Assembly (NCBI GenBank): GCA_964619405.1
Contig: CAZUCF010000005.1
Location: forward strand, 1-61,589
Source: an uncultured archaeon
GTDB lineage: Archaea; Iainarchaeota; Iainarchaeia; Iainarchaeales; JAAZKV01
DNA length: 61,589 nucleotides
Reading direction: 5' to 3'
Shown: positions 41,862 to 60,209 of the stretch, piece after piece
Position numbering within the stretch: the stretch's first letter is position 1
Layout: each line of letters starts with the position of its first letter
Notes under the pieces: model-generated
Told to the model about the DNA's origin: nothing
What the model saw: only the letters and a program-made list of their open reading frames with translations
Databases searched by the model: none
Translations under genes and position numbers: made by a program

Positions 41862-41920
41862 GTTTGTTTTTATTTTAAATTGGTTTGTTTTTATTTTAAA
41901 TTGGTTTGTTTTTATTCTAA
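41862..41920. repeat. Tandem repeat, about 3 x 21 bp, overlapping the stop codon of the 41912-42232 gene
   Basis: GTTTGTTTTTATTTTAAATTG at 41862, 41883 and (partial) 41904. Confidence 0.75.
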
Positions 41921-43203: not shown

Positions 43204-43287
43204 TTTTTTTTATTTAATAATGATTAATATTTTTTATTTTATTTATTTGTTTTTTTTTATTTAATAATGATTAATATTTTTTATTTT
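43204..43287. repeat. 37-bp direct repeat (43204-43240 / 43251-43287) overlapping the rtcB stop
   Basis: TTTTTTTTATTTAATAATGATTAATATTTTTTATTTT twice, 10-bp spacer. Confidence 0.75.
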
Positions 43288-44444
43288 GTTTGTCTGTTTT
43301 CAATTCCCTTCCAATTAATTATTGGTTTTAAATGTTTGTGTATTTTCACACTTTCTTTTTGCGAGTTCATTACATCAAAAATGTTTTTGTAAGCAAAAGG
43401 GCTCTCGTCAATAGTTCCTTTTTCAATAACAGCTGTTATTCCTTTCATTGTGTTCTCGAATTCTTTCAAAGTTATTTTTTCTTTTACAGTTCTTTTACTC
43501 ATTGCTCTTCCAGCGCCATGACTACTTGATTCCAAAAAATTTTTGTTGCCTTTCCCAATAACCAAAAAAGTTCCATCCCTCATGTTTCCAGGAATAACTC
43601 CTTTCTCTCCTTTCTTGCTTGGAGTCGCCCCCTTCCTATGAATAAAATTATTTGTTTTTCCTATTCTCTCTGCATTATTATGGTTTTTGTTAGCCCAAAC
43701 AATCCATTCTACTTTTTTATTAATTGTTTTCTCAAAAATATTAATAAAATCTCTTGCTATTTCAAGTCTATTTAGTAAAGCAAATTCTAAGCAAAATTCT
43801 AGTATTACTAAATATTCTTTTCCTATTGTTGATCTAACATCAAAACCAAATGTTCTCTCAACATTTCCTTTTTCACCATTCAATTCCATTGCTTTTCTCA
43901 TATAGTGTTCAGCAATATGGTGTCCAACATTTCTTGAACCAGAGTGAATTATTAACCACAAGTCTTTTCCAGAAGTATCAAGTTCAATAAAATGATTGCC
44001 GTGTCCAACTGTTCCCAAATTGCTTTTTGCTTTTCTCTTAACCCAATCAACTAATTCCTTGTCTTTCAATTTTTTGTCGAGTTTAGAAAAAATTTTTTCA
44101 AACTCTTTTTTTCCTTCAATGCTTAATCTGTGTTCTGCTCTTAATTTTCCTAAACCCATTGGTATTTCTTTTTTAATTTCAAGAAAAATTTTTTGAGAAT
44201 TATTGTTTACTTTTGGTAAAAGGTTTTTCCCATTGATTTTTATTGCTGTTACGCCACAACCAATATCGTATCCAACCCAAGATGGAACAATAACTCCTTT
44301 TGTTATTAGCACTGAACCAATTGGCGCAACATAACCATAATGAGCATCAGGCATTAATGCTCCGTCAACAACAAAATCTTGTGAAAAGCATTCTTTGAAT
44401 TGTTTTAAAGTTGATTCATCAATATTTTTAACAAATACTTTCAT
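43281..44444 (-). CDS. rtcB: RNA-splicing/repair ligase RtcB (short, bacterial-like)
   Basis: MPDAH.G, VGYDIGCG, G.GNHFIE, IHSGSR, NHN, HRKGAT, SHGAGR, DESPFAYK. Confidence 0.95.
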   Translation of the reverse strand: MKVFVKNIDESTLKQFKECFSQDFVVDGALMPDAHYGYVAPIGSVLITKGVIVPSWVGYDIGCGVTAIKINGKNLLPKVNNNSQKIFLEIKKEIPMGLGKLRAEHRLSIEGKKEFEKIFSKLDKKLKDKELVDWVKRKAKSNLGTVGHGNHFIELDTSGKDLWLIIHSGSRNVGHHIAEHYMRKAMELNGEKGNVERTFGFDVRSTIGKEYLVILEFCLEFALLNRLEIARDFINIFEKTINKKVEWIVWANKNHNNAERIGKTNNFIHRKGATPSKKGEKGVIPGNMRDGTFLVIGKGNKNFLESSSHGAGRAMSKRTVKEKITLKEFENTMKGITAVIEKGTIDESPFAYKNIFDVMNSQKESVKIHKHLKPIINWKGIENRQTK

Positions 44445-44674
44445 ACAAAAATTATTGTTGAACATGATTTAAAGATTGTTGTTTTTTAAATAATATTAAT
44501 TTTTAATAAAATATTTTGCAATCTTTAATTAATTTTATTTTTTTTAATTAGTTTTTTACTTTGTAATTATTTTGACTAGTTAATTAAAATTTTAATTATT
44601 TCAAACGTAGTCTTTTTAGTTTGATTTTTGTTTTATTAAACAATTTAATAAGTTTTGTGCTAATGTAATAAGTT

Positions 44675-46418: not shown

Positions 46419-46522
46419 CTCTTGAACCCTTTCGTTGGTTCTCGCCGAGAGCGCATCTTCGTTTTAACTCGATGCACTTTAATAATTATTTTTTGTGTTC
46501 CTTCGGTAACACTTTATTAATT

Positions 46523-46614
46523 TTAATCTATAAAGAATTGCCAGCACTTTTTAAATTCTTTTAGAATTTAAAACCTGCACTAAAATGTGGCAATTAATCT
46601 ATAAAGAATTGCCA
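46523..46614. repeat. 21-bp direct duplication of the fusA 3' end flanking a 50-bp hairpin insert
   Basis: TTAATCTATAAAGAATTGCCA at 46523-46543 and 46594-46614. Confidence 0.85.
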
Positions 46615-48786
46615 TGGTTTAACTTCTTCTGGCATGCCCTTTCTTTTACGTATTTCTTTGATTGTTTGTTGTTGTAATTCTGAAGGCAATTTTTCGTAAC
46701 CATAGTATTCTGCAGTCCAAACAGCTCTTCCTTGTGTTGCACTCCGCATAGCATTACTAAAACCAATTAATTCTTTTACAGGCGCTTTACCAATTATTAT
46801 GCTTGAGTCACCCTCGGTTCTCATCTCTGTTATTTGTACTCTTCTCGCGCCCAATTCTCTTGATGCTGAACCCATTTGGTTTTCTGGTACATTCACTGTT
46901 AGTAATTGTTTTGGCTCGTATAATTCTACTCCGCCTTGTAACATGCAAGCATATATGCCTCTTGTTATGGCTGGTAGTACTTGTGCTGGCCCCCTGTGTA
47001 TTGAGTCCTCATGCAGTGTTGCATCAATTAACTCAAACATTACTCCTTGGCATTTTTCTTTTGCTAGTGGCCCCTCGTTCATTGCGTCAACAAATGCTTG
47101 TACTAGTAATTCTCTTATCTCGTTTAATGCTTGTATTCCTCTTGTTCTGTCAACTAGAACATTTGCTCCTGAAACAGCCCAAATTTTTCTTGATGTGTCA
47201 GTATCAAAACCAATTTCTTTTAATTTATTGATACTATCAGTGTGCTTTGGTTTTATTTTTCCATCCAAAGATGTTTCCAATAATTTTTCAAATATTGGGC
47301 CGGTTATTGTTGTTGTTCTTATTTTGAATTTGTTGTGTTTGTTTGGACTCTTTGCTTCTAGTACTTCGCTTGCACTTTTTAGTGCTTCGTGGTAAACAAC
47401 TATTGGTGATGATGTTTCAACTTCTAGTTTGTGATTATTTTTTATTCTATAAATGTTTACTTCTAAATGTAATTCTCCCATTCCTGATAACAAGTGTTCT
47501 CCTGTTTCCTGGTTTATTGTTGCTTGCAAGTTAGGATCTTCTTTTGATAATTTTTTTAATACTTCAATTAGTTTTGGTAAGTCCTTTGGATTTTTTGCTT
47601 CAATACTAATAGTCATTACTGGTTTTGCATTACTCATGAAACTCTCAAACGATTTCATTTCTATTGTTGAAACAGTTTCTCCAGCATAAATATCTTTTGC
47701 TCCAACTATTGCTGCAATGTTTCCTGCTCGCGCCTTTTTTATTGTTAGGAAGTCACCACTCATATAAACGCCTAATTTTTGAACCTTTATTTTTTGGCCT
47801 GTTGATAATAATGTTACTTCGTCTCCGGGTTGTATTGTTCCTGAATATAATCTTCCTGTTGCAACGTCTCCTGCGTGTTGGTCAACACTAACATCTGTTA
47901 TTACCATTGATAATGGGCTTTCAGCATCACAATTAGTCATGTGCTTGCTTATTTCTGTTTCTTCTTCTCCGCCCCAAATCTTTTTTATCCTATATTTTTG
48001 TGATTGTATTGGTGATGGTAAGTGATCTATAACCATTTGTAGTACTGCTTCGTGAACAGGTGATTTTTTTGCTAACTCGTCTTGTTGTCCGTTCTTCATG
48101 TACTCGTAAACTTGTTTAAAATTAACTCCTGATTTTTTTATGTATGGTGCTGACACAGCCCATTTTTTCATTGCTGAACCAAATGCAACAGTTCCTTTTT
48201 CAATGCTTACTTTCCATTCGTTTTTGAATTGTTCTGGAGCATTTCTTTCAATTAGAGTGTTAACATGAGTTATTACTTTAATAAATTTTTCTTGCATTTG
48301 TTGTTCGGTAGCATTTAACTCTGAGATTATTCTGTCTACTTTGTTAATAAATAATATTGGTCTAACATATTCTTTTAATGATTGTCTAATTACTGTTTCT
48401 GTTTGAGGCATTACTCCTTCAATAGCGTCAACAACTAGTATTACTCCGTCAACTGCTCGCATTGCTCTAATAACTTCTCCAGTAAAATCAACGTGTCCGG
48501 GAGTATCAATTAAATTAATTAAGTGTTGTTTTCCTTCCCAAGGGTATGCTAGGGAAATGTTTGCAGCGTTAATAGTTATTCCCCTGTCTTGTTCTTGGTC
48601 TTCATAATCCATTAATTGTACTTCACCAGATAATTCAGAGTTTATTAGTCCTGCTGCTGCTATTAAAGAATCACTTAAAGTAGTTTTTCCGTGATCAATG
48701 TGTGCTACTGTTCCAATATTTCTAATATTCTCTCTTTTTTCCATTAAGTTTTCAACTAACTCTACCATGTCTTCTTTTCGTCCCAT
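46594..48786 (-). CDS. fusA: Elongation factor 2 (aEF-2)
   Basis: AHIDHGKTTLSD, EQDRGITI, DTPGHVDF, GMGELHLE, diphthamide loop HEDSIHRGPAQ. Confidence 0.98.
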   Translation of the reverse strand: MGRKEDMVELVENLMEKRENIRNIGTVAHIDHGKTTLSDSLIAAAGLINSELSGEVQLMDYEDQEQDRGITINAANISLAYPWEGKQHLINLIDTPGHVDFTGEVIRAMRAVDGVILVVDAIEGVMPQTETVIRQSLKEYVRPILFINKVDRIISELNATEQQMQEKFIKVITHVNTLIERNAPEQFKNEWKVSIEKGTVAFGSAMKKWAVSAPYIKKSGVNFKQVYEYMKNGQQDELAKKSPVHEAVLQMVIDHLPSPIQSQKYRIKKIWGGEEETEISKHMTNCDAESPLSMVITDVSVDQHAGDVATGRLYSGTIQPGDEVTLLSTGQKIKVQKLGVYMSGDFLTIKKARAGNIAAIVGAKDIYAGETVSTIEMKSFESFMSNAKPVMTISIEAKNPKDLPKLIEVLKKLSKEDPNLQATINQETGEHLLSGMGELHLEVNIYRIKNNHKLEVETSSPIVVYHEALKSASEVLEAKSPNKHNKFKIRTTTITGPIFEKLLETSLDGKIKPKHTDSINKLKEIGFDTDTSRKIWAVSGANVLVDRTRGIQALNEIRELLVQAFVDAMNEGPLAKEKCQGVMFELIDATLHEDSIHRGPAQVLPAITRGIYACMLQGGVELYEPKQLLTVNVPENQMGSASRELGARRVQITEMRTEGDSSIIIGKAPVKELIGFSNAMRSATQGRAVWTAEYYGYEKLPSELQQQTIKEIRKRKGMPEEVKPWQFFID

Positions 48787-48829
48787 TTGCTCACCATTTA
48801 AAATTATTTTTTGTTGTTTTTTAATTTAC

Positions 48830-49546
48830 TTATCTTGATGCCCTCGCGATTCTTTCTACTTCGTCTCTTCTTTTTATTGCCAAGCTTTTTGTTTCTCTGT
48901 TTGCTGCTGCAATAATTTCTTCTGCTAGCGCGCTTGCTGCATCAGTTCTAGAATTAAAAGAGTTGCCAAAACCAGCTAGAGCAATATTTTTTATTGACTC
49001 ATCTAATCTTTTTAAAGGGGAAACATCTACTGCTATAGAATAAGCTACCCCTCCTTTTTTTACTCTTGTAACATCTTCTCTTGGTGCAACATTTTCTATT
49101 GCTTCAACAAGAACTTGTACTGGATTCTTTTTTGTTTTTAATTCAATAATCTCAAATGCTTTTTCAACAATATTTATTACTTGTAATTTTTTTCCGCAAC
49201 TACCTCTTCCCCTAATATATCTTCCACTCAACTTCTTTTTTCCTTGTCCTGAACGCATCATTTTGTTTATTAGTCTTTCAACAAGGTTTATATTAGTTTT
49301 ACCAAATTTAGTTTGGCTTTTTCTTCCAAATGAATGTGGGACCATTACTGGATCAAGGTTAATATAATTTACTAGGCTTAGATCTGAAACAATAACATCT
49401 TTTGTAGACCACTTATTGAACATTTTGTATTCTGAAAAAGGACTGTGTTTTTTAACAAAAACAGGTTTTTCAACTATTTCTTCTTGTTCGTATTGTGCTT
49501 TTTTTTCATCAAAATTTTTTCTAAATTTTCTATTTTGTTCAACCAT
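48830..49546 (-). CDS. rps7: 30S ribosomal protein S7
   Basis: VERL.NK.MR, NP.QVLV.AIEN..PRED.TR, AVD.SP..R.D, EEII.AA, KR.E.ER.A.ASR. Confidence 0.95.
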   Translation of the reverse strand: MVEQNRKFRKNFDEKKAQYEQEEIVEKPVFVKKHSPFSEYKMFNKWSTKDVIVSDLSLVNYINLDPVMVPHSFGRKSQTKFGKTNINLVERLINKMMRSGQGKKKLSGRYIRGRGSCGKKLQVINIVEKAFEIIELKTKKNPVQVLVEAIENVAPREDVTRVKKGGVAYSIAVDVSPLKRLDESIKNIALAGFGNSFNSRTDAASALAEEIIAAANRETKSLAIKRRDEVERIARASR

Positions 49547-49553
49547 AAAATCA

Positions 49554-49985
49554 CTATCTCTTACTCTTCTCTTTTTTTCCACTTCTAAGCATTTCTAATG
49601 CGATTCCATTAACGTGTGTTACTTGGTATTTTACGCCCCATAAATCACCCATTGAACCGCCTTGTGCTCCACCAATTCCTGATACTAGTACTTCATCGTG
49701 CTCGTCAATAAATTTTATTGCCCCGTCTTTTGGTGCTAAAGCTGTTAATTCTTTACCATTTTTTATTAATTGTACTCTAACGCATTTTCGGATTCCAGAG
49801 TTTGGTTGTTTTGCAGTTACACCTCTTTTTTCTAAAACAATTCCCTTTGCTTGTGGCGAACCCTCTAACAAGTCACCCTTGTTTCCTTCTCTTAATTTTT
49901 GTTTTTTTGCTATTCGCCTATCTTTTTTTTGCCATTTTCTTCTCTTTTTTTCAAGACTCAATGCTGCAAATTCTCCTCGACCCAT
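49554..49985 (-). CDS. rps12: 30S ribosomal protein S12
   Basis: [34 protein letters not shown]. Confidence 0.97.
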
Positions 49986-50051
49986 TAATACACCTTACCA
50001 ATTCATTCAAACAAAACTAATATATATGTTTTTTTTAAACATTATTTTTCT

Positions 50052-50456
50052 TTAGTTTAAAATCAACTCCAATTCATAATTCCTTTTAATTAATTCTTTT
50101 ACTATTTTAAATCTCCTACTATTCATAAAAATCTTTTTTTTGTTATCAGCATCAATACTCAATAACAACTTATCATTTTTTTTCTTTACCTCATTTATTT
50201 TAACATTAAATGTTTTTGATAGAACATCTTCTGGGTTATTATAATAACCAATGATTTCTATTTTTTTGTTTAATTTGTGCTCAAGATTTTTTACATTCTC
50301 TGCTTTTTTTCCAATTGCTTTTCCCATTTCTCTTTCTTTAACAAAAAAAGAAATAATATTGTTTCTAACAATACAATCCTTTGCACTAACTTTTGAAATT
50401 TTTTCAAAAGCGTTAATCAACAAAATATCCTCCATTGAAAATTTCATTACAATCAC
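50052..50456 (-). CDS. nusA: Archaeal NusA (KH domain)
   Basis: I..FE.I......DC, G.AIGK...NVK.L...L.K.IE; position between rpl30e and rps12. Confidence 0.9.
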   Translation of the reverse strand: MIVMKFSMEDILLINAFEKISKVSAKDCIVRNNIISFFVKEREMGKAIGKKAENVKNLEHKLNKKIEIIGYYNNPEDVLSKTFNVKINEVKKKNDKLLLSIDADNKKKIFMNSRRFKIVKELIKRNYELELILN

Positions 50457-50465
50457 AATTATAGA

Positions 50466-50789
50466 TTATTTTTTAATAATCTCTTTCTCATTTGAAAGTT
50501 CAAGCACCTTGCTTTTTCCCTTGTCAACAATCATTAACACTGAAATATTAAATGGTTTCCCACAAATATTCCCAAAATTTAAACCATTTTGATCAAAATC
50601 AAAAGTCTTTTTCCCTTCAGTTTTTGAAATGTGCATTAACCTTTCTTTTTGTTCTAAAGGAATATTACTTGAAAAAATAATTAATTCTCCATTGCCCTTT
50701 AATAATTCTTTCAAACATTGTTTTTGTCCGAAAAGAACTTTTCCTGTATCAACAGCTCTTCTGATTTCAGTGCTTGCATCTATTGCCAT
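50466..50789 (-). CDS. rpl30e: 50S ribosomal protein L30e
   Basis: EIRRAVDTGKV.FG, G..CGKPF.ISV..I.D.G.S; ATG 50789. Confidence 0.92.
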   Translation of the reverse strand: MAIDASTEIRRAVDTGKVLFGQKQCLKELLKGNGELIIFSSNIPLEQKERLMHISKTEGKKTFDFDQNGLNFGNICGKPFNISVLMIVDKGKSKVLELSNEKEIIKK

Positions 50790-50863
50790 AATATCAAACT
50801 CTTTTTTTGAGAAGTTTTTAATTTTAAAAACCCTACTCCGTTTCCAGAGGAAACTTCTCAAGG

Positions 50864-51169
50864 CTAAAATAATTTCATTATAGAAGGTTTATAAAGGTGT
50901 TCTAAATTTTCTTTTTCAAATAATCTTTTGCAATATTCTAAACCCAGTTCAGTCCAACAAAATGTGTCTGTTCTATGTTTTCTTAACAAACCAGTTTTTA
51001 TAAAAATTTCTACAATATCTTTTCCAAAATGCCTTTCATGTTTTGGCATGCGTTTTACTAAATTTACAATAGTTGCGTGTTTATTATAACTATTTCCAAG
51101 CTCTTTGTAAATTGATAAAACAGATTTTTTATATTGAGGTAAAGTCTCAAAATTTTTTAATAAAACCAT
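50864..51169 (-). CDS. Hypothetical protein, possible winged-helix fold
   Basis: 101-aa ORF ending L...GLL.......F..TE.G; fold is inferred. Confidence 0.5.
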   Translation of the reverse strand: MVLLKNFETLPQYKKSVLSIYKELGNSYNKHATIVNLVKRMPKHERHFGKDIVEIFIKTGLLRKHRTDTFCWTELGLEYCKRLFEKENLEHLYKPSIMKLF

Positions 51170-51289
51170 AAATGATTCTAATTTTTTTTGTTTTTAAACG
51201 AATTGGTGATTTTATGCCGAATTACAAAAAAAAGTAATATTACAACAAAAAAGAATATTATTAAAATCTTTTCTTATTATTATTTTTTT

Positions 51290-51541
51290 ATGCTTAAAAC
51301 AAAACAAATAACTGTTTCAGACGCTATTGAAAATGAATTAGAAAAAATGCCTAAATGGCAAGTTTTAATGTTCTTACAAAAAAATGGTTCTACTTCTGTC
51401 TATTCTCTTTCAAAAGAACTTAATTGGGCTACTAGTAAAGCACACTCAGTAGTAAACCAATTAGAAAAATCTAATGCAATAAAATCAAAAATAGATTTAA
51501 TTAATGGCCGAGCTGTAAAAATTGTTTCGCTTGTAAAATAA
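51290..51541 (+). CDS. Small winged helix-turn-helix protein
   Basis: VL.FL.KNG..SVY.LSKELNW..S..H..V.QLEK...I; ATG 51290. Confidence 0.7.
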   Translation: MLKTKQITVSDAIENELEKMPKWQVLMFLQKNGSTSVYSLSKELNWATSKAHSVVNQLEKSNAIKSKIDLINGRAVKIVSLVK

Positions 51542-51616
51542 TTTTTTTAAAAAATTTTTTTTCCTCGGTACGATACTTGTGAAATGTTTATAAGGAATTA
51601 TTCTGTTAACGTTATT

Positions 51617-52630
51617 ATGGTTAAAGATATTGTTGTTAGGAATTCTACAATAGATTTCTTAATTTTTACAAAAGATTCTGGCGAAAACATTGAAGCCAAG
51701 TTTTTTGATGATAATGTTTGGTTAACACAAAAATTAATTGCTAAGCTCTTTGATGTAGATAGAAGTGTAATAACAAAGCATTTAACAAATATTTTTGAAG
51801 AGCAAGAATTGAATAGTAATTCAGTTAGTGCAAAATTTGCACACACTGCTGCAGATGGCAAAAAATATAATACATTTTTTTATAATTTAGACGCGATTAT
51901 CTCGGTTGGTTATAGAGTAAATTCCAAGAGGGCAACGGATTTTAGAATTTGGGCAACAAGAGTACTAAAACAATTTGCGATTAAGGGTTATGTGTTGGAT
52001 AGAAAGCGATTAGAAAACGGTTCTTTTTTAAATAAAAATTATTTTGATGAATTGTTATCTGAGATAAGAGAAATTCGTTTGAGTGAAAGAAATTTTTATC
52101 AAAAAATAACTGATATTTATTCAACTAGTATTGATTATGATAAAGAAGCAAAGATAACAAGAGATTTTTTTGCGAAAGTACAAAATAAATTACATTATGC
52201 GATACATGGACACACTGCTCCTGAACTAATTGCAAAACGCGCTAATGCAAAAAAACAAAATATGGGTTTGACTTCTTGGAAGAATTCTCCACAAGGAAAA
52301 ATAATCAAAACGGATGTTTCAATTGCCAAAAATTATTTAACAAAAACAGAATTAGAATCATTTGGAAGAATAGTTAGTGCTTATCTTGATTTAGCTGAAG
52401 AAAGAGCAAAAAGAAAAATTCCAATGACTATGGAAGATTGGGCAAAAAGATTAGACAAGTTTTTAGAATTTGATGAAAGAAAAATTTTGGTTAATGCTGG
52501 TGAAATAAATTCAAAAAAAGCTAGAGAAATTGCGGAAAAAGAGTTTGAGAAATATCGTTTAATTCAAGATAAGTTATTTGAATCAGATTTTGATAAACTA
52601 TTCAAAAAAACAAAGAAATTGGAAAAATGA
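51617..52630 (+). CDS. RhuM-family (virulence RhuM / COG3943-like) protein
   Basis: VWLTQK.IA.LFDV.RS.ITKHL.NIF, YNLDAIISVGYRVNS.RAT.FR.WA, SERNFYQKITDIY.TS.DY, VQNKLHYAIHGHTA.ELI. Confidence 0.9.
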   Translation: MVKDIVVRNSTIDFLIFTKDSGENIEAKFFDDNVWLTQKLIAKLFDVDRSVITKHLTNIFEEQELNSNSVSAKFAHTAADGKKYNTFFYNLDAIISVGYRVNSKRATDFRIWATRVLKQFAIKGYVLDRKRLENGSFLNKNYFDELLSEIREIRLSERNFYQKITDIYSTSIDYDKEAKITRDFFAKVQNKLHYAIHGHTAPELIAKRANAKKQNMGLTSWKNSPQGKIIKTDVSIAKNYLTKTELESFGRIVSAYLDLAEERAKRKIPMTMEDWAKRLDKFLEFDERKILVNAGEINSKKAREIAEKEFEKYRLIQDKLFESDFDKLFKKTKKLEK

Positions 52631-52692
52631 TTAATTTCATTAGTAATTGCCAGTTTTCGTCTAGGTGAACGAGTTAGGGTACTTGCAGTACC

Positions 52693-53964
52693 CTATTTCA
52701 TTAATAGTTCAACGATTCCTGTTCCTACTTTGATTGGTTGGCCTGCTATTAAATTTTCTACTACGCCTGTTAATTGTTCTTCTTCGCCTTTGAATGCCGC
52801 ATCCAACAAGTGTTTTGTTGTTTCTTCGAATGCTGCTCTTGCGAATGGTGATGCTTTTAATTTGTTTATTCCTGTTCTAACAATCCCTTTTATTTCTCCT
52901 GAATAAGTCATTAAGTCTGCTAGTAACATTATGTGTCTTACATCAACAGCTATTCCATTGTCATCTAAAACTTTTTTTAGTTCTTGCACTGCTAATTGTC
53001 TTGCAGCTTCTATTCCAAGTATTTTTGATGTTTCAATTATATCGTTTGTAAATATTTTTGTTTGGTCAACATCTTCTAATTTTAACACTGCTTTTAAATT
53101 ACTTCCAGATGTTTTTATTATATATTCATCGCCTTCTTTTGTTAGCAATGTTTTTTCAATGCCTTTAATACCGTGTACTTTTTCTTTTAATAATGTTAGT
53201 AATTCTTTTCTTACTTTTAAATAATCTCCTTTCTTTTCGATTTGTAAGTGTATTGTGTTCTCTATTTGTCTTGATTTCAAATCCTTTAAACCATTTTTTA
53301 TTACTTCTGACACATCTTCCATTGCCAAATTCAAATCTTTAACTTTGTTTTTGTCTATTTCTATTGAGAATTTTAATTCTTCAAATTTTTCGCTTAGTGT
53401 TGTTATGTCTTTTACTCTTACATCAATCAAACTTTTAGCAAATTTTTCTGCTTTACTCTTATCTTTTTTTATTTCATCATTTAAATAAATAGTCATTGTT
53501 GGGTACTTTGCTTTGTTTCTACCATCAACTATTTCTTCTACTCTTTGTATTCCTGAGCCAACAGATACTTCTGCTGAACCAGCAAAGTGTTTTGTTCTTA
53601 ATGTTAATTGTGTTCCGGGTTCTCCTAATGATTGTGCAGCAATTATTCCTACTGCTTCTCCTGGTTCAACTAAACAATTATCATATTTTTCTTTTACTTT
53701 ATCAGCTAGTTTGTCTGCTTGTTCTTTTGTTAATTTGAATACTTCTGACACAGCAACTATTTCTTCTAACAATTTTTTTGTTAGGGGTACTTGTTCCCAA
53801 CTTCTTTCTTCGTCCTCATAAACTTTTTTAATATTTTTTTTGCTTGTTTTATCTTCAATATCAGTTTCTTCTTCGTCTTCTTCTGGAGTAACAACATCAA
53901 TTTCTTCTTCTATATCATCTTCCACAATTTCTTTTTCTTCTAAATCAATCATTTCATCAGTCAT
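52693..53964 (-). CDS. rpoA2: RNA polymerase subunit Rpo1C (A'') with acidic N-terminal extension
   Basis: PGEAVG.IAAQS.GEPGTQ.TL.T.HFAG, D.RH..L.AD.MT, ARAAFE.T, ENLI.GQP...GTG. Confidence 0.97.
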
Positions 53965-53972
53965 TTACTCAC

Positions 53973-56573
53973 CTATAATAATTTATTTTTCTTCATTTCT
54001 TCGTACTCTTCTTTTACATTTACTGATACTCCGTTCTTAGTGTTTTTTGGGAATACTCCGTCTTCTCCATAAGAATATTGTACTAGTGCGTTTGAAGCGG
54101 TTCTTACTGTTCCATCAGGTGTTGCAACCAAATCTTTTAATGCGTTTGATAGTCTCCTATACAAGTATCCTGATACTTTTGTTGATACTCCTGTGTCCAC
54201 TTCTCCTTGTCTTCCACCCATTGAGTGGTAAAAATATTCTTTTGCTGTTAAACCGTCAAGGAAATTGTTTTCAATAAAACCACCTGCTTCTAAACCAACA
54301 TCTTCTAATTTGTTGGTTGTTATCAGTCTTTTTGTAAAACCTTTTTTGGGTCGTCCTTCTCTTACTGATGCTTGGCCCCAAAAACCAGCAATATTCATTA
54401 GGTTAATAGTACTTCCTCTTGATTTTGATAGTATCATTGAAATTGTGTTTAACACTGGTTTTTCTCTTGTAACATAATCTAATTTTTCTTTTGTTACTTC
54501 TTTCTCTACTTTTGATTTTGTTTCAAAAGCTAGTCTAACCATGTATTGTTCGAATGATTGTTCTAAAGTTCTTCCTGGAATAATTTCCATTGTTCCTTTT
54601 TCAAATGCTTGTACTATTGCTTCTCCTTTTTCAAAAGCATCGCTTATAGCTTTCTTTTTCATTTTTTTTACTTCGTCGCTTGTCTTGTACTCTTCGAGTG
54701 AAACAGTCATTCCTTTTTGTGTTAGAATAAAACTTGTTATTCTGTTTAATCCGTGATAAAATTTTTCAATTGTTTCGCTTGAGTATTCCCTCGCAATTTT
54801 GTCAACTAGTTTTCCTCTTCCAACGCTCACAGCGCTAGCATCAATTATACCGCTTTTTAAAAAACCATTTTCTATTACAACTTTTTCACCCAAACTATTT
54901 TCAACACCAATTTCCCTCAATACTTTTCCAGTGTATGATTCAAATTCCATGCTCAAATCTTTTGGTAGTATTTGAGAAAAAATTAGTCTCCCAGAATATT
55001 TTTTGCCTCTATCTGGTTTAGGTAATTCTTCTATTCCTATATCAAATAATAATTGCATTGTTTGTGTTTTATCAAATTCTGTTTGTGGTAATGTTAGAGC
55101 AAATAATCCTGATACCCCATCTTCTCCTGGAGCGATTACTGGTGCGCCAAATCTTGGAGAAATTATTTGGTCTCTTGTAAGCATTAACCTTTTTGCTTCT
55201 GCTTTTCCTTCTTCTGTTTGAGGAACATGGCAATTCATTTCATCACCATCAAAATCTGCGTTGTAAGGAGGACAAACAATTGGATTAATTCTAAAAACTT
55301 TTCCAGGCATTATTCTTGCGGTGTGAGCCATCATGCTCATTCTATGCAAAGAAGGTTGTCTGTTAAATAATACTATGTCACCATCTTGCAAGTTTCTCTC
55401 AATTCTGTAACCAACATCAAGTTCAGCAATTATTTCTTCTTTGTTATCCTCAGCAACTTTTCTTCTAGAACCATTAGGCCTAATTATGTATACTGGTTTG
55501 TCTGATTCTTTTATTTGTTTTTTTACTGTTGCTAGATTCCATTCTGTTACAAATTCTGGCACAGTTAATTCTTTTGCAGCTTCTTCTGGTACTCCTAACT
55601 CTGAAATATCTATGTATGGGTCAGGGACAACTGTTGATCTTGCCGCGTGGTTAACTCTTTTCCCTGTTAAATTGTATCTGAATCTTCCTTTTTTTCCTTT
55701 TAATCTTTGTATTATTGTTCTTAATGGTCGCCCACTCCTATGCTTTGCTGGTGGTACTCCTGCAGTATTATTATCAAAGTAAGTTGTTACATGGTATTGT
55801 AGTAAATCCCATAAATCCTCAATTATTAATTGTGGTGCTCCGGCCTCAATATTATCTTTTAACCTATTATTTATTCTAACAATGTCAACTAACTTGTGTG
55901 TTAAATCATCCTCACTTTTTATTCCGCCTTCAAGAGAAATACTTGGTCTAATCGTTATTGGGGGTATTTGTAGTACTGTTGTTACAAACCACTCTGGTCT
56001 TATTCTTGTAACATCGTAACCCATTAGCCTTAATTGTGTTTCAGGAATTTTTTCAACCCACTCTCTTATTTGAGTTGGGTAAATTCTTTCCTTGTTATAA
56101 TAAAAATTAGTTGGCTTGTCTAACTGTACTTTTCCAACGCTCGCATTACAATGAGGGCATTTCTTCATTGTTTTTGCTTTAAACATTATTCTCTTTGACA
56201 AATCCTTTATTCTTCCTTTTGTTTCTTCTTCATATTTTTTTATTTGTTCTTCGCTCAATAATAATTCTCCGCACTCTTTACAAGTATTAATTAGTAATAA
56301 TTCTATTCTCCTACCAAACTCAGAGTGTATTATTGGTCGCTCTAATTCCAAGTGCCCAAAGTGTCCTGGACAATCCCTCATTGTTTGCCCACAAGTCTTA
56401 CATCTTATTCCAGGATTAATTACTCCTAAGTGAGAGTCCATTAAGCCTCCTTCCATTGGAAAACCATCTTTGTCATAAGTTTCAGGAGTTTTTATTTCAA
56501 CAGCACTCATCTTTCTAATCATCTCAGGGCCTAATATAGAGAATTCTATTCCACCAATTTTTTTCATTATCAT
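53973..56573 (-). CDS. rpoA1: RNA polymerase subunit Rpo1N (A')
   Basis: CPGHFGH, RL.GK.GRFR.NL.GKRV, FNRQPSLH, YNADFDGDEMN catalytic motif, GGRQG..DT.V.T..SGY. Confidence 0.98.
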   Translation of the reverse strand: MIMKKIGGIEFSILGPEMIRKMSAVEIKTPETYDKDGFPMEGGLMDSHLGVINPGIRCKTCGQTMRDCPGHFGHLELERPIIHSEFGRRIELLLINTCKECGELLLSEEQIKKYEEETKGRIKDLSKRIMFKAKTMKKCPHCNASVGKVQLDKPTNFYYNKERIYPTQIREWVEKIPETQLRLMGYDVTRIRPEWFVTTVLQIPPITIRPSISLEGGIKSEDDLTHKLVDIVRINNRLKDNIEAGAPQLIIEDLWDLLQYHVTTYFDNNTAGVPPAKHRSGRPLRTIIQRLKGKKGRFRYNLTGKRVNHAARSTVVPDPYIDISELGVPEEAAKELTVPEFVTEWNLATVKKQIKESDKPVYIIRPNGSRRKVAEDNKEEIIAELDVGYRIERNLQDGDIVLFNRQPSLHRMSMMAHTARIMPGKVFRINPIVCPPYNADFDGDEMNCHVPQTEEGKAEAKRLMLTRDQIISPRFGAPVIAPGEDGVSGLFALTLPQTEFDKTQTMQLLFDIGIEELPKPDRGKKYSGRLIFSQILPKDLSMEFESYTGKVLREIGVENSLGEKVVIENGFLKSGIIDASAVSVGRGKLVDKIAREYSSETIEKFYHGLNRITSFILTQKGMTVSLEEYKTSDEVKKMKKKAISDAFEKGEAIVQAFEKGTMEIIPGRTLEQSFEQYMVRLAFETKSKVEKEVTKEKLDYVTREKPVLNTISMILSKSRGSTINLMNIAGFWGQASVREGRPKKGFTKRLITTNKLEDVGLEAGGFIENNFLDGLTAKEYFYHSMGGRQGEVDTGVSTKVSGYLYRRLSNALKDLVATPDGTVRTASNALVQYSYGEDGVFPKNTKNGVSVNVKEEYEEMKKNKLL

Positions 56574-56671
56574 AACTGATCACCTCGCCTGCAAAATCAG
56601 GCGGCACTTTTGGGCACCGTTAGTAGCCCTTAGTTTTTGCCTCCAAATTTTTTTGTACTCATTTTTTTCAC

Positions 56672-58486
56672 CTATACTTTGTCAACCAATTTTATTTTTG
56701 TGAGTATTCCTAGTGCTTTCAATTCTTCTAACAATAATTTGAAACCATAACTCATTTCAACAGGGTACATTCTTCCGCCCTTGCTTCCCAAAGCAACATT
56801 CTTTTTTCTTATTTCATCCCTGTATCCTATCAAACCTGTTTCTTCATCAACAAGTGCAACGAATTTATCTGAATCCTCAATCATTTTTTCATGGAGTAAC
56901 ATTGCTGCTCCGTGTCCAACAAGTGTTTCGCCCTCCATTTCTCCAAACCTTAAACCACCTTCTTTTTCTTTTCCTTCGGTTGGTTGTCTTGTAAGCATTT
57001 GTACTGGGCCCCTTGCTCTTGCTTGTATCTTGTGTGTTACAACGTGGTACAATTTTTGGTAAGGAATTACTCCAGTAAAAATTGCTCCTTCTAATCTTTT
57101 TCCTGTTACACCATCATAAAAAATTTCCATTCCATCATTTCTGAAACCCTTGTCTTCCAACATTTTTTCTAAAACACTTTGCTTTGTTGAATTGAATGGA
57201 GTGCCATCAATAATTTTTCCGTTTGCTGCACCAGCTTTCCCACCAATCATTTCTAATAAATGTCCCATAGTCATTCTTGAGGGAATAGAATGTGGGTTCA
57301 AAATTAAATCTGGTTTTATTCCGTCAATAGTAAAAGGCATGTCTTCTTCTGGAACAATATAACTAACAACACCTTTTTGTCCGTGCCTTGAAGCTAGTTT
57401 GTCTCCAACAGCTGGTTTTAATGTTGTCCTAACCTTTACTTTTACTAGCCTACTACCATCTGGGCCCTCTGTTATTAGTATTGTGTCAACAAAACCATCT
57501 TTTCTTTTTCTAACTATTACTGATGAATCAATTCTTTTTTCTTGTTCTACCCCAAAATCATTCATTTCTTCAAAAAATTTTGGTGGACTAGTCCTACCAA
57601 TAATAGCTTCTCCTTCATGAACCTCTTGTTCCAAATTAATTATTCCGTCTACTCCTAATTTAGAATATTTTTGTTCTTCAATAAAACCAACTTTTTCTTC
57701 TGTTGGTGCTTCAAACTTGTCTCTTTGCCCACCAGGGTACCTTTGTTCTATTGCCTCGTAACCCCTAAAATAACAACCCCTTGCTAGTCCCCTGTCAACT
57801 GCTCCTTGATTTAGTATTACAGCGTCCATTGTGTTGAAACCATAGTAAGGCATTATTGCTACTACAAAGTTTTGTACTTGTGGTCTCTCATCCATTCCAA
57901 GGACATCCATTGTCTTTGTTTTCACAATATTTTTTTCAGGATAATAAAGCATGTATCCTTCAGTATCATGTCTTAACTTAAAATTTGATGAACCAAATCC
58001 AATTGATTGTTTAAACATTTTGTCTCCGTGCAAAGCTTTTCCAGCCATGTCGTGTTCAATGTATGGTACCATGCTTGAGATAACACTTAGTATTGCTGAA
58101 CCATCTATCTCTAAGTGAGTGTGTTCTTTTGTTATCTCATTTTCTTTTTGTGCAACAAAAGTATTTTCTTCTTCTTCAGAATCAAGGTACTCTATAACAC
58201 CCATTTCAACTAGTTTGTTAAAATTTATTTCTCCGTTAGAAACCTTTTCTTGTAATTCGTGAGTGTAAGCACTCTTACCATTTTTTACAACTATTAATGG
58301 TCTTTGTAATCTTCCAGCATCAGTATTAATATAAACTTCGTTAGTGTCCTTGTGCAAAGCGATATTAGTTTCTTTTGGTAGTGCACCATCTCTTCTCGCA
58401 TTAATAGCAATTTTTGTTAGTTCTTCAGCGTTCTCGTGGAAACCAATTAACCTACCATTAATATATACTTTTGCTACATTAGCCAT
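56672..58486 (-). CDS. rpoB1: RNA polymerase subunit Rpo2C (B')
   Basis: INTDAGRLQRPL, GDKLASRHGQKG, LNPHSIPSRMT, RARGP...LTRQPTEG....GGLRFGEME. Confidence 0.98.
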   Translation of the reverse strand: MANVAKVYINGRLIGFHENAEELTKIAINARRDGALPKETNIALHKDTNEVYINTDAGRLQRPLIVVKNGKSAYTHELQEKVSNGEINFNKLVEMGVIEYLDSEEEENTFVAQKENEITKEHTHLEIDGSAILSVISSMVPYIEHDMAGKALHGDKMFKQSIGFGSSNFKLRHDTEGYMLYYPEKNIVKTKTMDVLGMDERPQVQNFVVAIMPYYGFNTMDAVILNQGAVDRGLARGCYFRGYEAIEQRYPGGQRDKFEAPTEEKVGFIEEQKYSKLGVDGIINLEQEVHEGEAIIGRTSPPKFFEEMNDFGVEQEKRIDSSVIVRKRKDGFVDTILITEGPDGSRLVKVKVRTTLKPAVGDKLASRHGQKGVVSYIVPEEDMPFTIDGIKPDLILNPHSIPSRMTMGHLLEMIGGKAGAANGKIIDGTPFNSTKQSVLEKMLEDKGFRNDGMEIFYDGVTGKRLEGAIFTGVIPYQKLYHVVTHKIQARARGPVQMLTRQPTEGKEKEGGLRFGEMEGETLVGHGAAMLLHEKMIEDSDKFVALVDEETGLIGYRDEIRKKNVALGSKGGRMYPVEMSYGFKLLLEELKALGILTKIKLVDKV

Positions 58487-58514
58487 TCAACAACACCTAT
58501 AATTTTTTAACTTT

Positions 58515-58626
58515 ATTTACAATTTCTTTAATCTTACTCCTTGTCCTGTTTCGCCATGACCAGACGAAGCACTATCTGCGCTTCGCTTGATAGAGCGATT
58601 TACAATTTCTTTAATCTTACTCCTTG
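58515..58626. repeat. 29-bp direct duplication of the rpoB'' 3' end flanking a 54-bp GC-rich structured insert
   Basis: ATTTACAATTTCTTTAATCTTACTCCTTG at 58515-58543 and 58598-58626. Confidence 0.9.
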
Positions 58627-60063
58627 CTTGTGCAAGAAGTCCTCAACATTATCTTCAGCAACCTCTGTTGTAACCTCGCTCATAAAACACAAGTTTTTTA
58701 CTAAACCACATTGTGGGCCATCAGGAGTCTCAATTGGATCCAATCTACCCCAGTGTGTTCCGTGAACATCTCTTGCCTCATACAATTCTCTTGTCTTTGA
58801 TAATTGTGACTTAACTTTTCTCATGTCTGTTACTGGTGCCAAGTAATTCACTCTGTCCATGAATTTTGCTACTCCAGTACTCCTACCAATCCAATTACCA
58901 GTGCTCATAGCAAACCTTATTCTCTCGCTAACTGCTCCTGGTCTAACAATAGTAGAAATATTTAGTTTTCTTCTCCTCGTAACAGTCCTATCAACTTGGA
59001 ATCTCAAATCTTTCACAAAATATTTGAATGAGTACCTAAACAAGTGTTCCATTAGTTTCCCACTTAACTCTAGTCTCTTGTTAGCATAATGATCTTTGTC
59101 ATCCTTGCTTCTCAAACCATGGCTCCTCTCAATTGCTTTTGTAGCCATCATTGATAAATAATATGCTTTCGCTAGTTTTGATTCCTCGTCTTGCCCAATG
59201 TGTGGTAACAAGAAACCATTGATTACTTCTCTTGCTCTTCTTAACCTGTAATCAATTACTTGTCCTGGTGCAACAAACTTTCCTATCTTGTCTAAAGCAT
59301 CTTCTTCTTGTCTTATATCACATTCTTCCCAATTCAAACACAAGTCATTTTGTATTTCTATTTCTTCTGGGAAAGCATCAAAAATTTCTTTTCTTGTTTT
59401 TAATCCAAGTGCTTTGAACAAAGTAAATAATAATAATTTTCTTGGACTTGTTGGGAAAGTAGCATACAATAATCCCTCAGGGCTCCTTGTTACCCTTACT
59501 CTTCCCTTGAAAGCTCCTTTTGTTGATATTACTTCAGCAGAAGTTCCTTTTTCTCCTTCTGATATTAGTACTCTGTCACTAGACAAAACTTCTTGTGTCA
59601 TCAAAGCTTTTTCAGAACCATTAACAATAAAATAACCCCCAAAGTCTCTTGGGTCCTCGCCAGCATTAACAAGTTCGTTCTCATTCATGCCATTTAACCA
59701 GCACTTACTTGACTTAACCATTATTGGTAAATCTCCAATAAAAGTTCGTCTAGCATCTTGTTCAACATCTCTCCTAAACAATCTCATTGTCAAATAAATT
59801 GGGCCAGAATAAGTTCTGTTTCTTAGCCTTGCTTCCATTGGCAAGAATTGGTCTCTTGGAGAACCATCCGCCTCAATTATTTTTGGTTTTTCTATTTCAA
59901 TATTGCTTAACTCGATTTTAACTTCCTCTATTTTTGGAATAATCTCTTTATTCTCTTCAACAATATCATTTAATTTAATATCAACAAATTGGTTAAAAGA
60001 ATCTAACTCCATTTGAGCAATATTCTTTTCTTTTAAATAAGAGTTAATTAATTCCCAACTCAT
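58600..60063 (-). CDS. rpoB2: RNA polymerase subunit Rpo2N (B'')
   Basis: P.EARLRN.TY, DPRDFGGYFIVNGSE, DDKDHY.NKRL, HGTHWGR..P.ETP.G..CGLVKNL. Confidence 0.97.
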   Translation of the reverse strand: MSWELINSYLKEKNIAQMELDSFNQFVDIKLNDIVEENKEIIPKIEEVKIELSNIEIEKPKIIEADGSPRDQFLPMEARLRNRTYSGPIYLTMRLFRRDVEQDARRTFIGDLPIMVKSSKCWLNGMNENELVNAGEDPRDFGGYFIVNGSEKALMTQEVLSSDRVLISEGEKGTSAEVISTKGAFKGRVRVTRSPEGLLYATFPTSPRKLLLFTLFKALGLKTRKEIFDAFPEEIEIQNDLCLNWEECDIRQEEDALDKIGKFVAPGQVIDYRLRRAREVINGFLLPHIGQDEESKLAKAYYLSMMATKAIERSHGLRSKDDKDHYANKRLELSGKLMEHLFRYSFKYFVKDLRFQVDRTVTRRRKLNISTIVRPGAVSERIRFAMSTGNWIGRSTGVAKFMDRVNYLAPVTDMRKVKSQLSKTRELYEARDVHGTHWGRLDPIETPDGPQCGLVKNLCFMSEVTTEVAEDNVEDFLHKQGVRLKKL

Positions 60064-60209
60064 TTAAACCACTCTCCGTCCTGTTTCCAAGAAAAATTGA
60101 AATTTTTCTGGACCCGCAAAATTCCATTTTGCTTGGTCGTCAGGACCAAACGAGTAATATCTTCGCAACAAGTTGCTCGATATTGATTTATTCATTTAAA
60201 CCACTCTCC
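60060..60209. repeat. 18-bp direct duplication of the rpoH stop / rpoB'' start junction flanking a 114-bp structured insert
   Basis: TCATTTAAACCACTCTCC at 60060-60077 and 60192-60209. Confidence 0.85.
60064..60195 (-). CDS. Putative 43-aa coupled mini-ORF between rpoH and rpoB''
   Basis: Hand translation: MNKSISSNLLRRYYSFGPDDQAKWNFAGPEKFQFFLETGRRVV*; TAA-ATG abutting at both ends; expression unverified. Confidence 0.35.
   Translation of the reverse strand: MNKSISSNLLRRYYSFGPDDQAKWNFAGPEKFQFFLETGRRVV

Follow-up and report, generated by a model that had tools for sequence, protein, structure and literature searches.

How does an operon of essential genes come to carry repeated gene ends with a short structured sequence between the two copies? 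This question is raised by contig CAZUCF010000005.1 (GenBank assembly GCA_964619405.1) of an uncultured archaeon of the Iainarchaeota. The whole analysed stretch of 61,589 nt, hereafter the window, has an overall GC content of about 0.30, and from approximately 7 kb onward its genes lie on the minus strand. The operon concerned includes rpoH, rpoB'', rpoB', rpoA', rpoA'', (L30e, NusA, S12, S7), aEF-2, and aEF-1alpha. An earlier reading of the DNA, hereafter the original prediction, described five junctions of this operon at which the junction sequence is repeated around a hairpin-forming spacer, and suggested an undescribed family of miniature inserts. Our analysis bears this suggestion out. 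The inserts belong to an apparently undescribed family of tiny non-coding elements with one hairpin end, which are mobile or at least have been inserted repeatedly: empty sites exist in relatives, and the same element occurs at unrelated loci and genomes, each time with a duplicate of its own flank. The finding is real and unusual, and the family probably represents a new kind of prokaryotic mobile element.

Duplicated gene ends and empty sites

On the coding strand, the modules share the plan A-X-A, where A stands for the upstream gene end with its stop codon (once also the next start codon) and X for an insert (50-114 nt between perfect repeats) that folds into hairpins; with the second A, the downstream gene regains its sequence context (Table 1). 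The three perfect repeats, of 21 nt (fusA/aEF-2), 29 nt (rpoB'') and 18 nt (rpoH), have exactly the coordinates and lengths originally given. In 50 simulations of the window under a first-order Markov model (dinucleotide frequencies), the longest direct repeat 20-300 nt apart was 17 nt. The remaining local repeats of the window are coding repeats or AT-rich tandem repeats. Two degenerate repeats had also been proposed, and they do exist: tAGGTGAaaaaaATGA (56659-56673) versus AGGTGAtcagttATGA (56570-56585) at rpoB'/rpoA', and GGAACAGGAATCGTTGAACTATTAATGAAATAG (52693-52725) versus the gapped and decayed AAACTGGCAATTACTAATGAAATTAA (52631-52656) at the rpoA'' end. On their own these two are weak, but they are credible because better-preserved homologous modules are present in the relatives L033, L036, L007, and L021 (loci and contigs outside the window are cited by L numbers).

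The spacers do form hairpins, and four of the five are GC-rich, as had been stated. The GC content is 0.54 and 0.38 in two inserts and 0.43 and 0.39 in the two intergenic gaps that hold the degenerate modules, against about 0.30 in the genome; only the spacer at EF-2, with 0.28, is AT-rich. No upstream open reading frame (ORF) is disrupted, and each downstream gene retains a ribosome-binding site (RBS) and a start codon, so the essential genes are indeed intact.

Repeats of this kind might in principle be produced by assembly or binning, through repeat-induced mis-joins or chimeras. Short-read assemblers may break or mis-join at 29-nt repeats, and one of two Logan contigs that cover the locus (L160) stops within the second 29-nt copy. 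However, both Logan contigs (L159 and L160), which come from separate runs, are 100% identical to the window at the rpoH/B'' junction, and L159 is identical over the entire B''/B' junction as well. The repeats at these two junctions are thus not an artefact. The same architecture is found in dozens of metagenome-assembled genomes (MAGs) and contigs from unrelated studies and assemblers, and the inserts are unique sequence rather than collapsed repeats. We regard the artefact explanation, a doubt raised along with the original prediction, as practically negligible.

Relatives were represented by 38 loci from an RpoB'' search (one genome per species) with 70-95% identity. All of them are DPANN MAGs labelled Candidatus Iainarchaeum, ainarchaeum or Forterrea, or "uncultured archaeon", which places the window in a genome of the Iainarchaeota (Diapherotrites). 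Alignment of the junctions with these relatives revealed empty sites. In L001, L002, L004, and L009 (88-95% RpoB'' identity) the rpoH/B'' and B''/B' junctions are -1 to 32 nt long and single-copy. The rpoH/rpoB'' junction of L001 (95%) and L009 reads ..GTTTGA/TAAATG.., with stop and start adjacent and the sequence present once; rpoB''/rpoB' in L001, L002, and L004 reads ..AAATTATAGGTGAATTTTATG, where the stop codon overlaps the RBS. Two further sites are empty in L002, namely rpoB'/rpoA' (21-nt spacer) and the 3' end of rpoA''. Three more distant loci that reach the aEF-2 end (L056, L025, and L026) have it once. Since the closest relatives (93-95% RpoB'' identity) have short junctions without a repeat, the window modules are insertions with target duplication. 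The presence of the element is patchy among close relatives.

Table 1. Positions of the modules and their parts in the window (rows follow the direction of transcription)
Feature	Position	Strand	Description or basis
rpoH/rpoB'' upstream target copy (GGAGAGTGGTTTAAATGA)	60192..60209	-	rpoH stop and now orphan ATG; 18-nt perfect repeat
rpoH/rpoB'' insert, 114 nt, long form of the family	60078..60191	-	folds
rpoH insert, 5' hairpin AAUAUC-GA-[GCAAC..GUUGC]-GAA-GAUAUU	60156-60184	-	fold
rpoH insert, UCGU..ACGA	60137-60155	-	fold
rpoH insert, nested two-hairpin module	60087-60136	-	followed by tail AAACAGGAC
rpoH/rpoB'' downstream target copy	60060..60077	-	working RBS and ATG of rpoB''; directly after ..CAGGAC
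rpoB'' end, upstream copy, last 29 nt including TAA and AT	58598..58626	-	perfect repeat
rpoB''/B' insert, 54 nt, canonical short form	58544..58597	-	covariance model R1, E=2.6e-4
rpoB'' end, downstream copy, 29/29 identical	58515..58543	-	repeat scan
Third rpoB'' end copy (AAAGTTAAAAAATTATAGGTG..), older, degenerate	58487..58514	-	by inspection
rpoB'/rpoA' old module	56570..56673	-	copy 1 (AGGTGAaaaaaATGA) 56659-56673; insert, 73 nt, 56586-56658
rpoA'' 3' end old module	52631..52725	-	copy 1 52693-52725; insert, 36 nt, 52657-52692; copy 2 52631-52656
aEF-2 end, upstream copy, last 21 nt including TAA	46594..46614	-	perfect repeat
EF-2 insert, 50 nt, AT-rich, subtype possibly different	46544..46593	-	fold
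aEF-2 end, downstream copy, 21/21 identical	46523..46543	-	repeat scan
EF-2/EF-1alpha spacer, sixth, diverged family member	46424..46480	-	covariance model R1, E=5.3e-4

The element family

Members of the family have no protein-coding capacity and no terminal inverted repeats; their length is 26-128 nt, the range seen in 27 curated copies. The 3' end is a GC-rich hairpin of 5-6 bp with an NCGAAA-type loop, usually with UCGN ahead of it. The fuller copies (L022, L070, L129, L144, and L148) suggest a consensus of 62-66 nt: AAGCCACUAC-[hairpin]-AU(A/G)AGUG-UAA-UCGN-NNN-[6-bp hairpin, NCGAAA loop]. Numerous copies are 5'-shortened or contain additional, nested hairpins.

The B''/B' copy of the window consists of a hairpin, GCUCUAUC/GAUAGUGC, with a GCGAAGC mini-hairpin loop, followed by UUCGU-CUG-[GUCAUG GCGAAA CAGGAC]. 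It lacks the AAGCCAC head of the 62-66 nt forms and looks like a 5'-shortened relative of the consensus. A near-identical element with compensatory changes in the 5' hairpin occupies the same site in L021 and L029; the L029 copy has an additional nested 54-nt two-hairpin module. The rpoB'' duplicates match each genome's own gene end, and three synonymous differences between the window and L021 are mirrored in the second copy. Downstream of the perfect repeat lies a third copy of the rpoB'' end, which matches the ancestral stop/RBS layout of L001, L002, and L004 and contains the RBS that rpoB' now uses.

The rpoH/B'' insert is a long form of the B''/B' element, with the same nested module elsewhere in the element, and forms a three-way junction closed by GUCCUG/CAGGAC pairing. 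Its nested module also occurs, at another position, in L029 and L046. The distance between the two target copies is 132 nt, i.e., in frame, and an open frame of 43 codons begins at the orphan ATG and is closed by the second TAA (60061-60195, minus strand; MNKSISSNLLRRYYSFGPDDQAKWNFAGPEKFQFFLETGRRVV*). This frame shares nucleotides with the rpoH stop codon at its ATG and with the start codon of rpoB'' at its own stop codon; translational coupling could thus pass through the insert. Further copies were found at rpoA'/A'' in L021 and upstream of L30e in L007.

The rpoH/B'' and B''/B' inserts are recent canonical copies, while the rpoA'' insert is an old one, GGGUAC-UGCA-AGUACCC UAAC UCGU-UCACCUAG-ACGA, whose duplicate has decayed with a deletion. 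The rpoA'' end has been filled independently in L007, L021, and L036, with duplicates of 22-34 nt. The rpoB'/A' insert contains a GGGC..GCCC hairpin, AAAGUGC, and the terminal hairpin CGCCUG-AUUUUG-CAGGCG, and its second target copy is the working RBS and start of rpoA'. Its homologue in L033 has a compensatory U-A to C-G change in the hairpin and a 25-nt duplicate; this insert is a sister type common to the window and L033. In the EF-2 insert, the 3' hairpin GCA-GG-[UUUUAAAUUC..GAAUUUAAAA]-AG-UGC abuts the downstream copy, and no relative of this insert was found in about 700 kb of related sequence. A sixth module, which the original prediction did not list, lies in the EF-2/EF-1alpha spacer and has the form GCAUC-GA-GUUAAAAC-GAA-GAUGC, CUCGG-CGA-[GAACC AACGAAAG GGUUC] with no recognisable duplicate left. 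The five junctions had been taken for a single family. This holds in part: four of the six modules share the 3' module of UCGN and hairpin or a diverged form of it, but the rpoB'/A' insert is of the sister type and the EF-2 insert stands without a relative.

The sequence GTCATGRCGAAACAGGAC preceded by TCGT is present in the window, in L007, L021, and L029, and, among the matches listed, in about 18 low-GC archaeal metagenome contigs. The metagenome scan with the exact 18-nt 3' motif gave at least 120 loci; among the matches listed, most are chance matches in high-GC bacteria, and bona fide copies are those of the approximately 18 archaeal contigs (GC 0.28-0.40). The metagenome copies sit in ribosomal-protein operons, adjacent to tRNA genes, and where genes end or start. 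In L144 (1490-1570), the 3' module is followed by another, diverged one (UUCGU-ACC-..-GGCGAAACUGGUGA), which directly adjoins a tRNA gene of the opposite strand. No copy of the canonical 3' module was found in viral contigs. The looser motif TCGT-N7-11-RCGA2-4-CHGG gave 22 matches versus none in shuffled sequences.

An unbiased scan for direct repeats (minimum length 14 nt, separation 30-260 nt) in low-GC loci totalling 620 kb revealed a dozen further A-X-A modules. Their X ends in different GC-rich hairpins with a similar loop, e.g., GAACCG-AGCGAA-CGGUUC, GCCCUG-CCGAAA-CUGGGC, GGAUC-GGCGAAAG-GAUCC, and CACCAG-GCGAAA-CUGGUG.

The pairing of the 3' hairpin is conserved. Among 13 diverse members, 89.7% of positions are paired versus 57% in shuffles, a score reached by none of 500 shuffles, and both sides have changed in five of the six pairs of the 6-bp hairpin; these members were picked for having a terminal hairpin, which introduces some ascertainment into the test. 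The 3' module was also cast as a covariance model (R1), the kind of model proposed at the outset, which finds 21 sites in the loci at E<1, and in the window only the two expected sites. The model is short; it does not detect copies that contain nested insertions (the rpoH insert) or the diverged copy at rpoA''. It was built without the MAFFT alignment of whole elements, which misaligned the variable 5' hairpins.

Searches of Rfam and the literature returned no description of such elements. Rfam has no match at gathering score in the window, and permissive searches gave no match inside any insert. The sole match to a ribozyme family is a partial twister-P3 (E=1.8; 18.6 bits versus a gathering threshold of 39.9) in the rpoB'' coding end and its duplicate. 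ARAGORN found no tRNA in the window. Several known RNA classes were tried and rejected. For the hammerhead, CUGACGA...GAAA is present in the rpoH insert, but the strands of stems I and III pair together, which is the wrong topology, and the short form lacks CUGANGA. By inspection, the RUGAUGA/CUGA boxes of C/D RNAs are absent, and a K-turn, an H/ACA RNA, a tRNA-like minihelix, and a group II domain V each lack a defining feature. An archaeal bulge-helix-bulge intron appears improbable, as the folds inspected show no motif of two 3-nt bulges around a 4-bp helix that joins both boundaries; no dedicated search was made.

Insertion and its possible mechanisms

Regularities of insertion were derived from the curated set of 27 copies, whose sources are numerous MAGs of Iainarchaeota and further low-GC contigs of archaea. 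In 25 of them, no more than 0-1 nt separates the 3' hairpin from the start of the duplicate. Duplicates are 14-70 nt long, many of them perfect, and their lengths differ between copies of one subtype. The 5' ends of sharp-boundary copies have neither a common sequence nor complementarity to the fixed 3' end GTCCTGTTTCGCC, and the shortest copies retain the 3' module only (26 nt at S7/EF-2 in L006 and 39 nt in L051). More than 20 unrelated sequences have been duplicated, and inspection of the curated copies, carried out with no formal test, revealed no target motif. A Shine-Dalgarno-like left boundary (AAGGAG, GGAGAG, AGTGAT) seen in the first copies was gone in the unbiased set.

The left side of the insertions offers some hints. 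The rpoA'/A'' copy of L021 (14900-14967), which lacks a duplicate, is preceded by the 11 nt AAATTATAAAT, the same as the rpoB'' end ahead of its sister copy; this is suggestive of a carried-over 5' flank. The element tail AACAGGAC resembles the target just left of the duplicate in L045 (GAACAGGA), L051 (GAAAACAG), and L021 ("AC"). The rpoA'' ends (GGAACAGGAAT / AACTGGAAT), where ..GTG.. is encoded as GGAACAGGAAT, also resemble this tail.

Certain gene ends have been hit repeatedly, with duplicates specific to each lineage: rpoB'' in the window, L021, and L029, and rpoA'' in the window, L007, L021, and L036. The S7 end carries an insert with a duplicate in L006 and L029 and, at the same junction of L022, an insert with no clear duplicate. 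One upstream locus is hit in both L002 and L006 (duplicates of 62-70 nt). Gene ends are sometimes hit by different subtypes in different lineages. A single site may also record successive events: L051 (1015-1260) has the structure A-X-A-Y-A, with three target copies and two different inserts, and the window has its older third copy at B''/B'. L020 has a tandem duplicate of the rpoB'' end without an insert.

The translated and untranslated copies of a gene end differ almost only at synonymous positions, including stop-to-stop changes (L007 12627-12800, L036 6593-6720, L033 9470-9590, L106, and L008 6592-6730). In L008, polarised with L010 as the outgroup, the translated copy has four changes and the untranslated copy has one. 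Coding competence is thus retained by the untranslated copy. Possible causes are selection acting through recurrent precise excision, gene conversion, perhaps with the hairpins looping the insert out, and removal at the RNA level.

Might the inserts be host intercistronic RNA elements (stabilisers, processing sites, or regulators) that are inherited vertically, with repeats produced by slippage? The conserved structure with covariation, the mostly sense orientation in highly expressed operons, the same subtype at the same junction of distant lineages (rpoB'' end, S7/EF-2), and the "coding-like" untranslated copy would all fit. Such an explanation is nevertheless quite improbable in view of the many unrelated loci, each with a duplicate of its own flank starting exactly at the 3' end, and of the closest relatives that have no insert. 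The duplicates are identical within a genome and different between genomes, some copies are 5'-truncated or nested, and two are antisense. The suggestion in the original prediction that the inserts were domesticated as inter-cistronic RNA regulators gains no direct support from these data. A regulatory role can coexist with mobility, as an exaptation.

We infer that the elements are copied in from a template ending at the hairpin foot, because one fixed end is combined with long, variable duplications and a variable 5' extent. A template molecule (RNA or single-stranded DNA) that physically ends at the hairpin foot would be copied, beginning with its 3' hairpin, either at a replication fork or into a break with staggered ends, by target-primed synthesis, as in retroposition, or by template switching. 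Copying would extend a variable distance toward the 5' end. The polymerase would then rejoin the target behind its point of departure, aided by microhomology, and copy the target again, which would yield the duplication. The elements are presumably non-autonomous, and the enzyme would act in trans.

The location at gene ends may be explained mainly by survivorship in a compact genome, with some contribution of microhomology. Where genes abut or overlap, an insertion would be tolerated only if the duplication spans the stop codon, RBS, and start codon, each copy keeping one role. Since only such duplications keep both genes functional, the survivors would sit at gene ends and starts, including those of essential operons. 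The original prediction spoke of targeting of gene ends in a core operon. A gene-end bias does exist, and 22 of 24 copies are sense to the gene with the duplicated end; but copies also occur in ribosomal-protein operons, beside tRNA genes, and at gene starts, and two are antisense. The direct repeats would further permit precise loss, which we propose as the reason for the patchy distribution among relatives. Taken as a whole, copy-in of non-autonomous mobile elements with survivorship at gene ends has, in our estimate, about an even chance of being correct.

A number of observations weigh against copy-in. The 5' hairpins differ between copies and are not nested truncations of one master. The copies in L046, L073, L119, L129, and at A'/A'' in L021 have no duplication. 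The boundaries of the rpoB'' duplicate are identical in the window and L021, which would be unexpected if breaks were random; a preferred site, repeated insertion there, or gene conversion between the copies would have to be assumed. The insert-less tandem duplicate of L020 resembles the footprint of a cut-and-paste excision, unexpected for a copy-in element. The microhomology cases are anecdotal, with no statistics behind them, and the invariance of the 3' module is partly a matter of ascertainment, since most copies were found with the exact 18-nt pattern. There is no A-tail or simple-repeat tail as in many retroposons. Finally, Pfam searches of ten window ORFs and of the scanned neighbour ORFs of metagenome copies (the window represents 61 kb of the genome) revealed no reverse transcriptase (RT), transposase, Cas1, or integrase. 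The ORFs scanned beside copies that lack a duplicate are genes of the usual archaeal kind, matching Nre, the HVO_2753 zinc finger, GNAT, MATCAP, and, weakly, a LAGLIDADG-like domain, with no RT, transposase, or integrase among them.

A more specific version of copy-in is that the elements are archaeal retroposons resembling short interspersed elements (SINEs), in which a small structured RNA, or an operon transcript whose end is the hairpin foot, would serve as template for reverse transcription that begins at its 3' hairpin, where the DNA is nicked or replicating. Long, variable target duplications would result. With re-insertion and precise loss by way of the repeats, the process would then be reversible, and the untranslated copy would stay coding-competent because of this reversibility. 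We hold this version only tentatively and consider it rather doubtful. To our knowledge, no such retroposition has been described in an archaeon.

Long duplications also bring to mind cut-and-paste transposition, with the elements being derivatives of a DDE insertion sequence (IS) of the IS1634/IS1549 kind, mobilised in trans. Target duplications of the IS1634 family are reportedly long and variable, from 17 to several hundred bp, and the insert-less duplicate of L020 and the older third copy in the window look like footprints of excision. This origin is unlikely, given the absence of terminal inverted repeats, 5' ends with neither a common sequence nor complementarity to the 3' end, a variable and truncated 5' extent, and no transposase ORF beside the copies among the neighbour ORFs scanned. 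A miniature inverted-repeat transposable element (MITE) was rejected because the required terminal inverted repeats of about 10 bp or more are absent and duplications are 14-70 nt rather than a fixed 2-10 bp. Duplication of att sites by a tyrosine or serine integrase was rejected in view of the more than 20 unrelated targets and the inserts of 26-128 nt with no integrase ORF inside.

The single defined end could instead point to a hairpin-recognising HUH/Y1 enzyme acting on single strands (IS200/IS605-PATE, REP/RAYT-like, or rolling-circle one-ended). Its nick would fall at the base of the 3' hairpin, and repair or replication would secondarily give rise to the duplications. A conserved terminal hairpin with the 4-nt UCGN motif a few bases 5' of it, a boundary exactly at the hairpin foot, the strong orientation bias (22:2), and the single end, as in one-ended rolling-circle transposition, agree with such an enzyme. 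The 5' domain contains a GCGAAGC mini-hairpin, which is exceptionally stable as DNA. Yet known IS200/IS605, REP, and IS91/Helitron elements are inserted next to a fixed short target without target duplication, in contrast to the 14-70 nt seen here, and there is no Y1/HUH gene among the ORFs scanned. We thus find an HUH/Y1 mechanism improbable. IS200/IS605-PATE and REP/RAYT elements as such were rejected because of the long duplications and a conserved hairpin at one end only.

Casposase or off-target Cas1-Cas2 integration had been named as a possible source of the repeats. Cas1-family integrases make staggered attacks and duplicate the sequence between the two attack points, casposons of Thaumarchaeota are known at the aEF-2 3' end, and the A-X-A-Y-A array of L051 is formally like repeat-spacer growth. 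Nevertheless, the duplication is not ruler-like (14-70 nt, not the 14-15 bp of a casposon product), terminal inverted repeats are absent, the duplicated gene ends are arbitrary, unrelated in sequence, and of variable length, and the inserted sequences (26-128 nt) form a family with conserved structure, unlike heterogeneous CRISPR spacers of about 30-40 nt. No CRISPR array was seen in repeat scans of the window and no Cas1 in the ten ORFs scanned, although this search was non-exhaustive. Both a casposon product and CRISPR spacer integration were rejected, and an origin through any Cas1-family integrase, on a mini-casposon or otherwise, is very unlikely.

Neighbouring features, implications and known systems

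Several other features of the window and its relatives are worth describing. The old copy at the rpoA'' end adjoins the border of a three-gene island (50864-52630) between rpoA'' and the L30e leader, which is not present in the closest relative L002. The island contains a RhuM-family gene (51584-52630, plus strand; Pfam E=4e-107), a MarR/wHTH-like ORF (51188-51541, plus strand), and an unassigned ORF of 101 aa (50864-51169, minus strand). Upstream of L30e, the motif GCCUUGAGAAGC...GCGGAGUAAGG is conserved in many relatives; the window version is GCCTTGAGAAGTTTCC (approximately 50840-50862, minus strand). In L008, L010, L016, L022-L024, L027, and L037 it lies downstream of rpoA''. The L30e-NusA-S12-S7 unit may thus have a conserved leader or a regulatory RNA in this motif. 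Junction inserts of another kind are small ORFs (230-280 nt) for hydrophobic, apparently membrane-like peptides between RNA polymerase genes (rpoB''/B' or rpoB'/A') of relatives: L003 2084-2365, L005 13306-13542, L010 11464-11720, L030 13293-13545, and L033 11464-11694.

A perfect 37-nt AT-rich direct repeat with a 10-nt spacer (43204-43240 and 43251-43287) overlaps with its second copy the stop codon of the RtcB gene (43281-44465, minus strand) and is thus a duplicated gene end without a structured insert. The 262-nt intergenic region 14570-14831 (minus strand, raised GC of 0.34) has strong predicted hairpins, e.g., CCACACCC-UAAA-GGGUGUGG and CUUCUGCUG..CAGCAGAAG, and no Rfam match; it may be an unannotated structured RNA. 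Other GC-rich hairpins are at 24360-24404 and 20822-20897. AT-rich tandem repeats with periods of 38 nt and 21 nt (40587-40694 and 41862-41916) lie in large intergenic regions and flank two ORFs without a Pfam match (38394-40307 and 40773-41726).

If the interpretation of the modules is true, they define a class of elements by a single hairpin end and long, variable duplications rather than by inverted repeats and a fixed duplication. MITE surveys demand inverted repeats and duplications of 2-10 bp (PMC11602168). Standard IS and MITE finders are blind to the element because of these requirements, and therefore it may be widespread in reduced DPANN genomes. The end of contig L160 inside a 29-nt copy indicates that such repeats may also systematically fragment k-mer-based assemblies at essential operons; breaks of this kind would hide the elements from MAG surveys.

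A selfish element could in this way enter the most essential and compact operons (RNA polymerase, ribosomal proteins, and elongation factors) harmlessly, since the stop codon, RBS, and start codon, which overlap there, are formed anew by the duplication. After an insertion, signals that used to overlap are uncoupled, short in-frame ORFs and hairpins have arisen between cistrons, and the repeats left behind are reversible and prone to recombination; insertions would be raw material for operon evolution and markers of strain-level polymorphism. The enzyme, once identified, could reveal a new integration or reverse-transcription activity. If the elements are retroposons, target-primed retroposition would not be limited to eukaryotes and group II introns, and DPANN genomes would harbour a so far unrecognised RT or polymerase with 3'-hairpin specificity.

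How do the elements compare with known systems? MITEs, casposons, CRISPR integration, IS200/IS605-REP elements, att duplication, and Rfam RNAs each differ from them in a defining feature, and no known class fits. The elements are like SINEs and 5'-truncated non-LTR (long terminal repeat) retroposons in being short and non-coding, in having a defined 3' end that abuts the downstream duplication, and in the variable length of the duplication. A 5' end that seems variable or truncated, a possible carried-over flank, and apparent microhomology at junctions would add to this likeness. The conserved 3' stem-loop could be a polymerase recognition site, as in "stringent" pairs of SINEs and long interspersed elements (LINEs). 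They are unlike SINEs in the absence of an A-rich or simple-repeat tail, in duplications of up to 70 nt, in the archaeal host, and in diverse 5' hairpins instead of one head; and, unlike SINEs, they have no identified RT partner among the ORFs scanned. Unusually long and variable target duplications are shared with IS1634/IS1549, which are, however, elements of 1.5-2 kb with terminal inverted repeats and a DDE transposase, whereas the element described here is 26-128 nt long with one defined end.

Casposons and CRISPR systems also duplicate the target by staggered integration, form A-X-A-Y-A arrays, and, in the case of thaumarchaeal casposons, occur at the aEF-2 3' end, but their fixed duplication (14-15 bp or the repeat length), the inverted repeats of casposons, and heterogeneous spacers are not seen here. 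REP/BIME elements, REPINs (RAYT), and PATEs are likewise small GC-rich hairpins at gene 3' ends or between cistrons, with an orientation bias and with structure kept more than sequence; in contrast to our elements, they have no target duplication, bear a GTAG-type 5' motif or a fixed tetranucleotide, and usually form inverted pairs. Mycobacterial MIRUs lie in the sense orientation between operon cistrons and contain small ORFs overlapping the neighbours' stop and start codons, as does the 43-codon frame at rpoH/B''; but they are tandem minisatellite units without duplication of gene ends, and only one module of the window is in frame. By analogy, the nearest known counterpart of the family is the eukaryotic SINE in behaviour and REP or MIRU in location.

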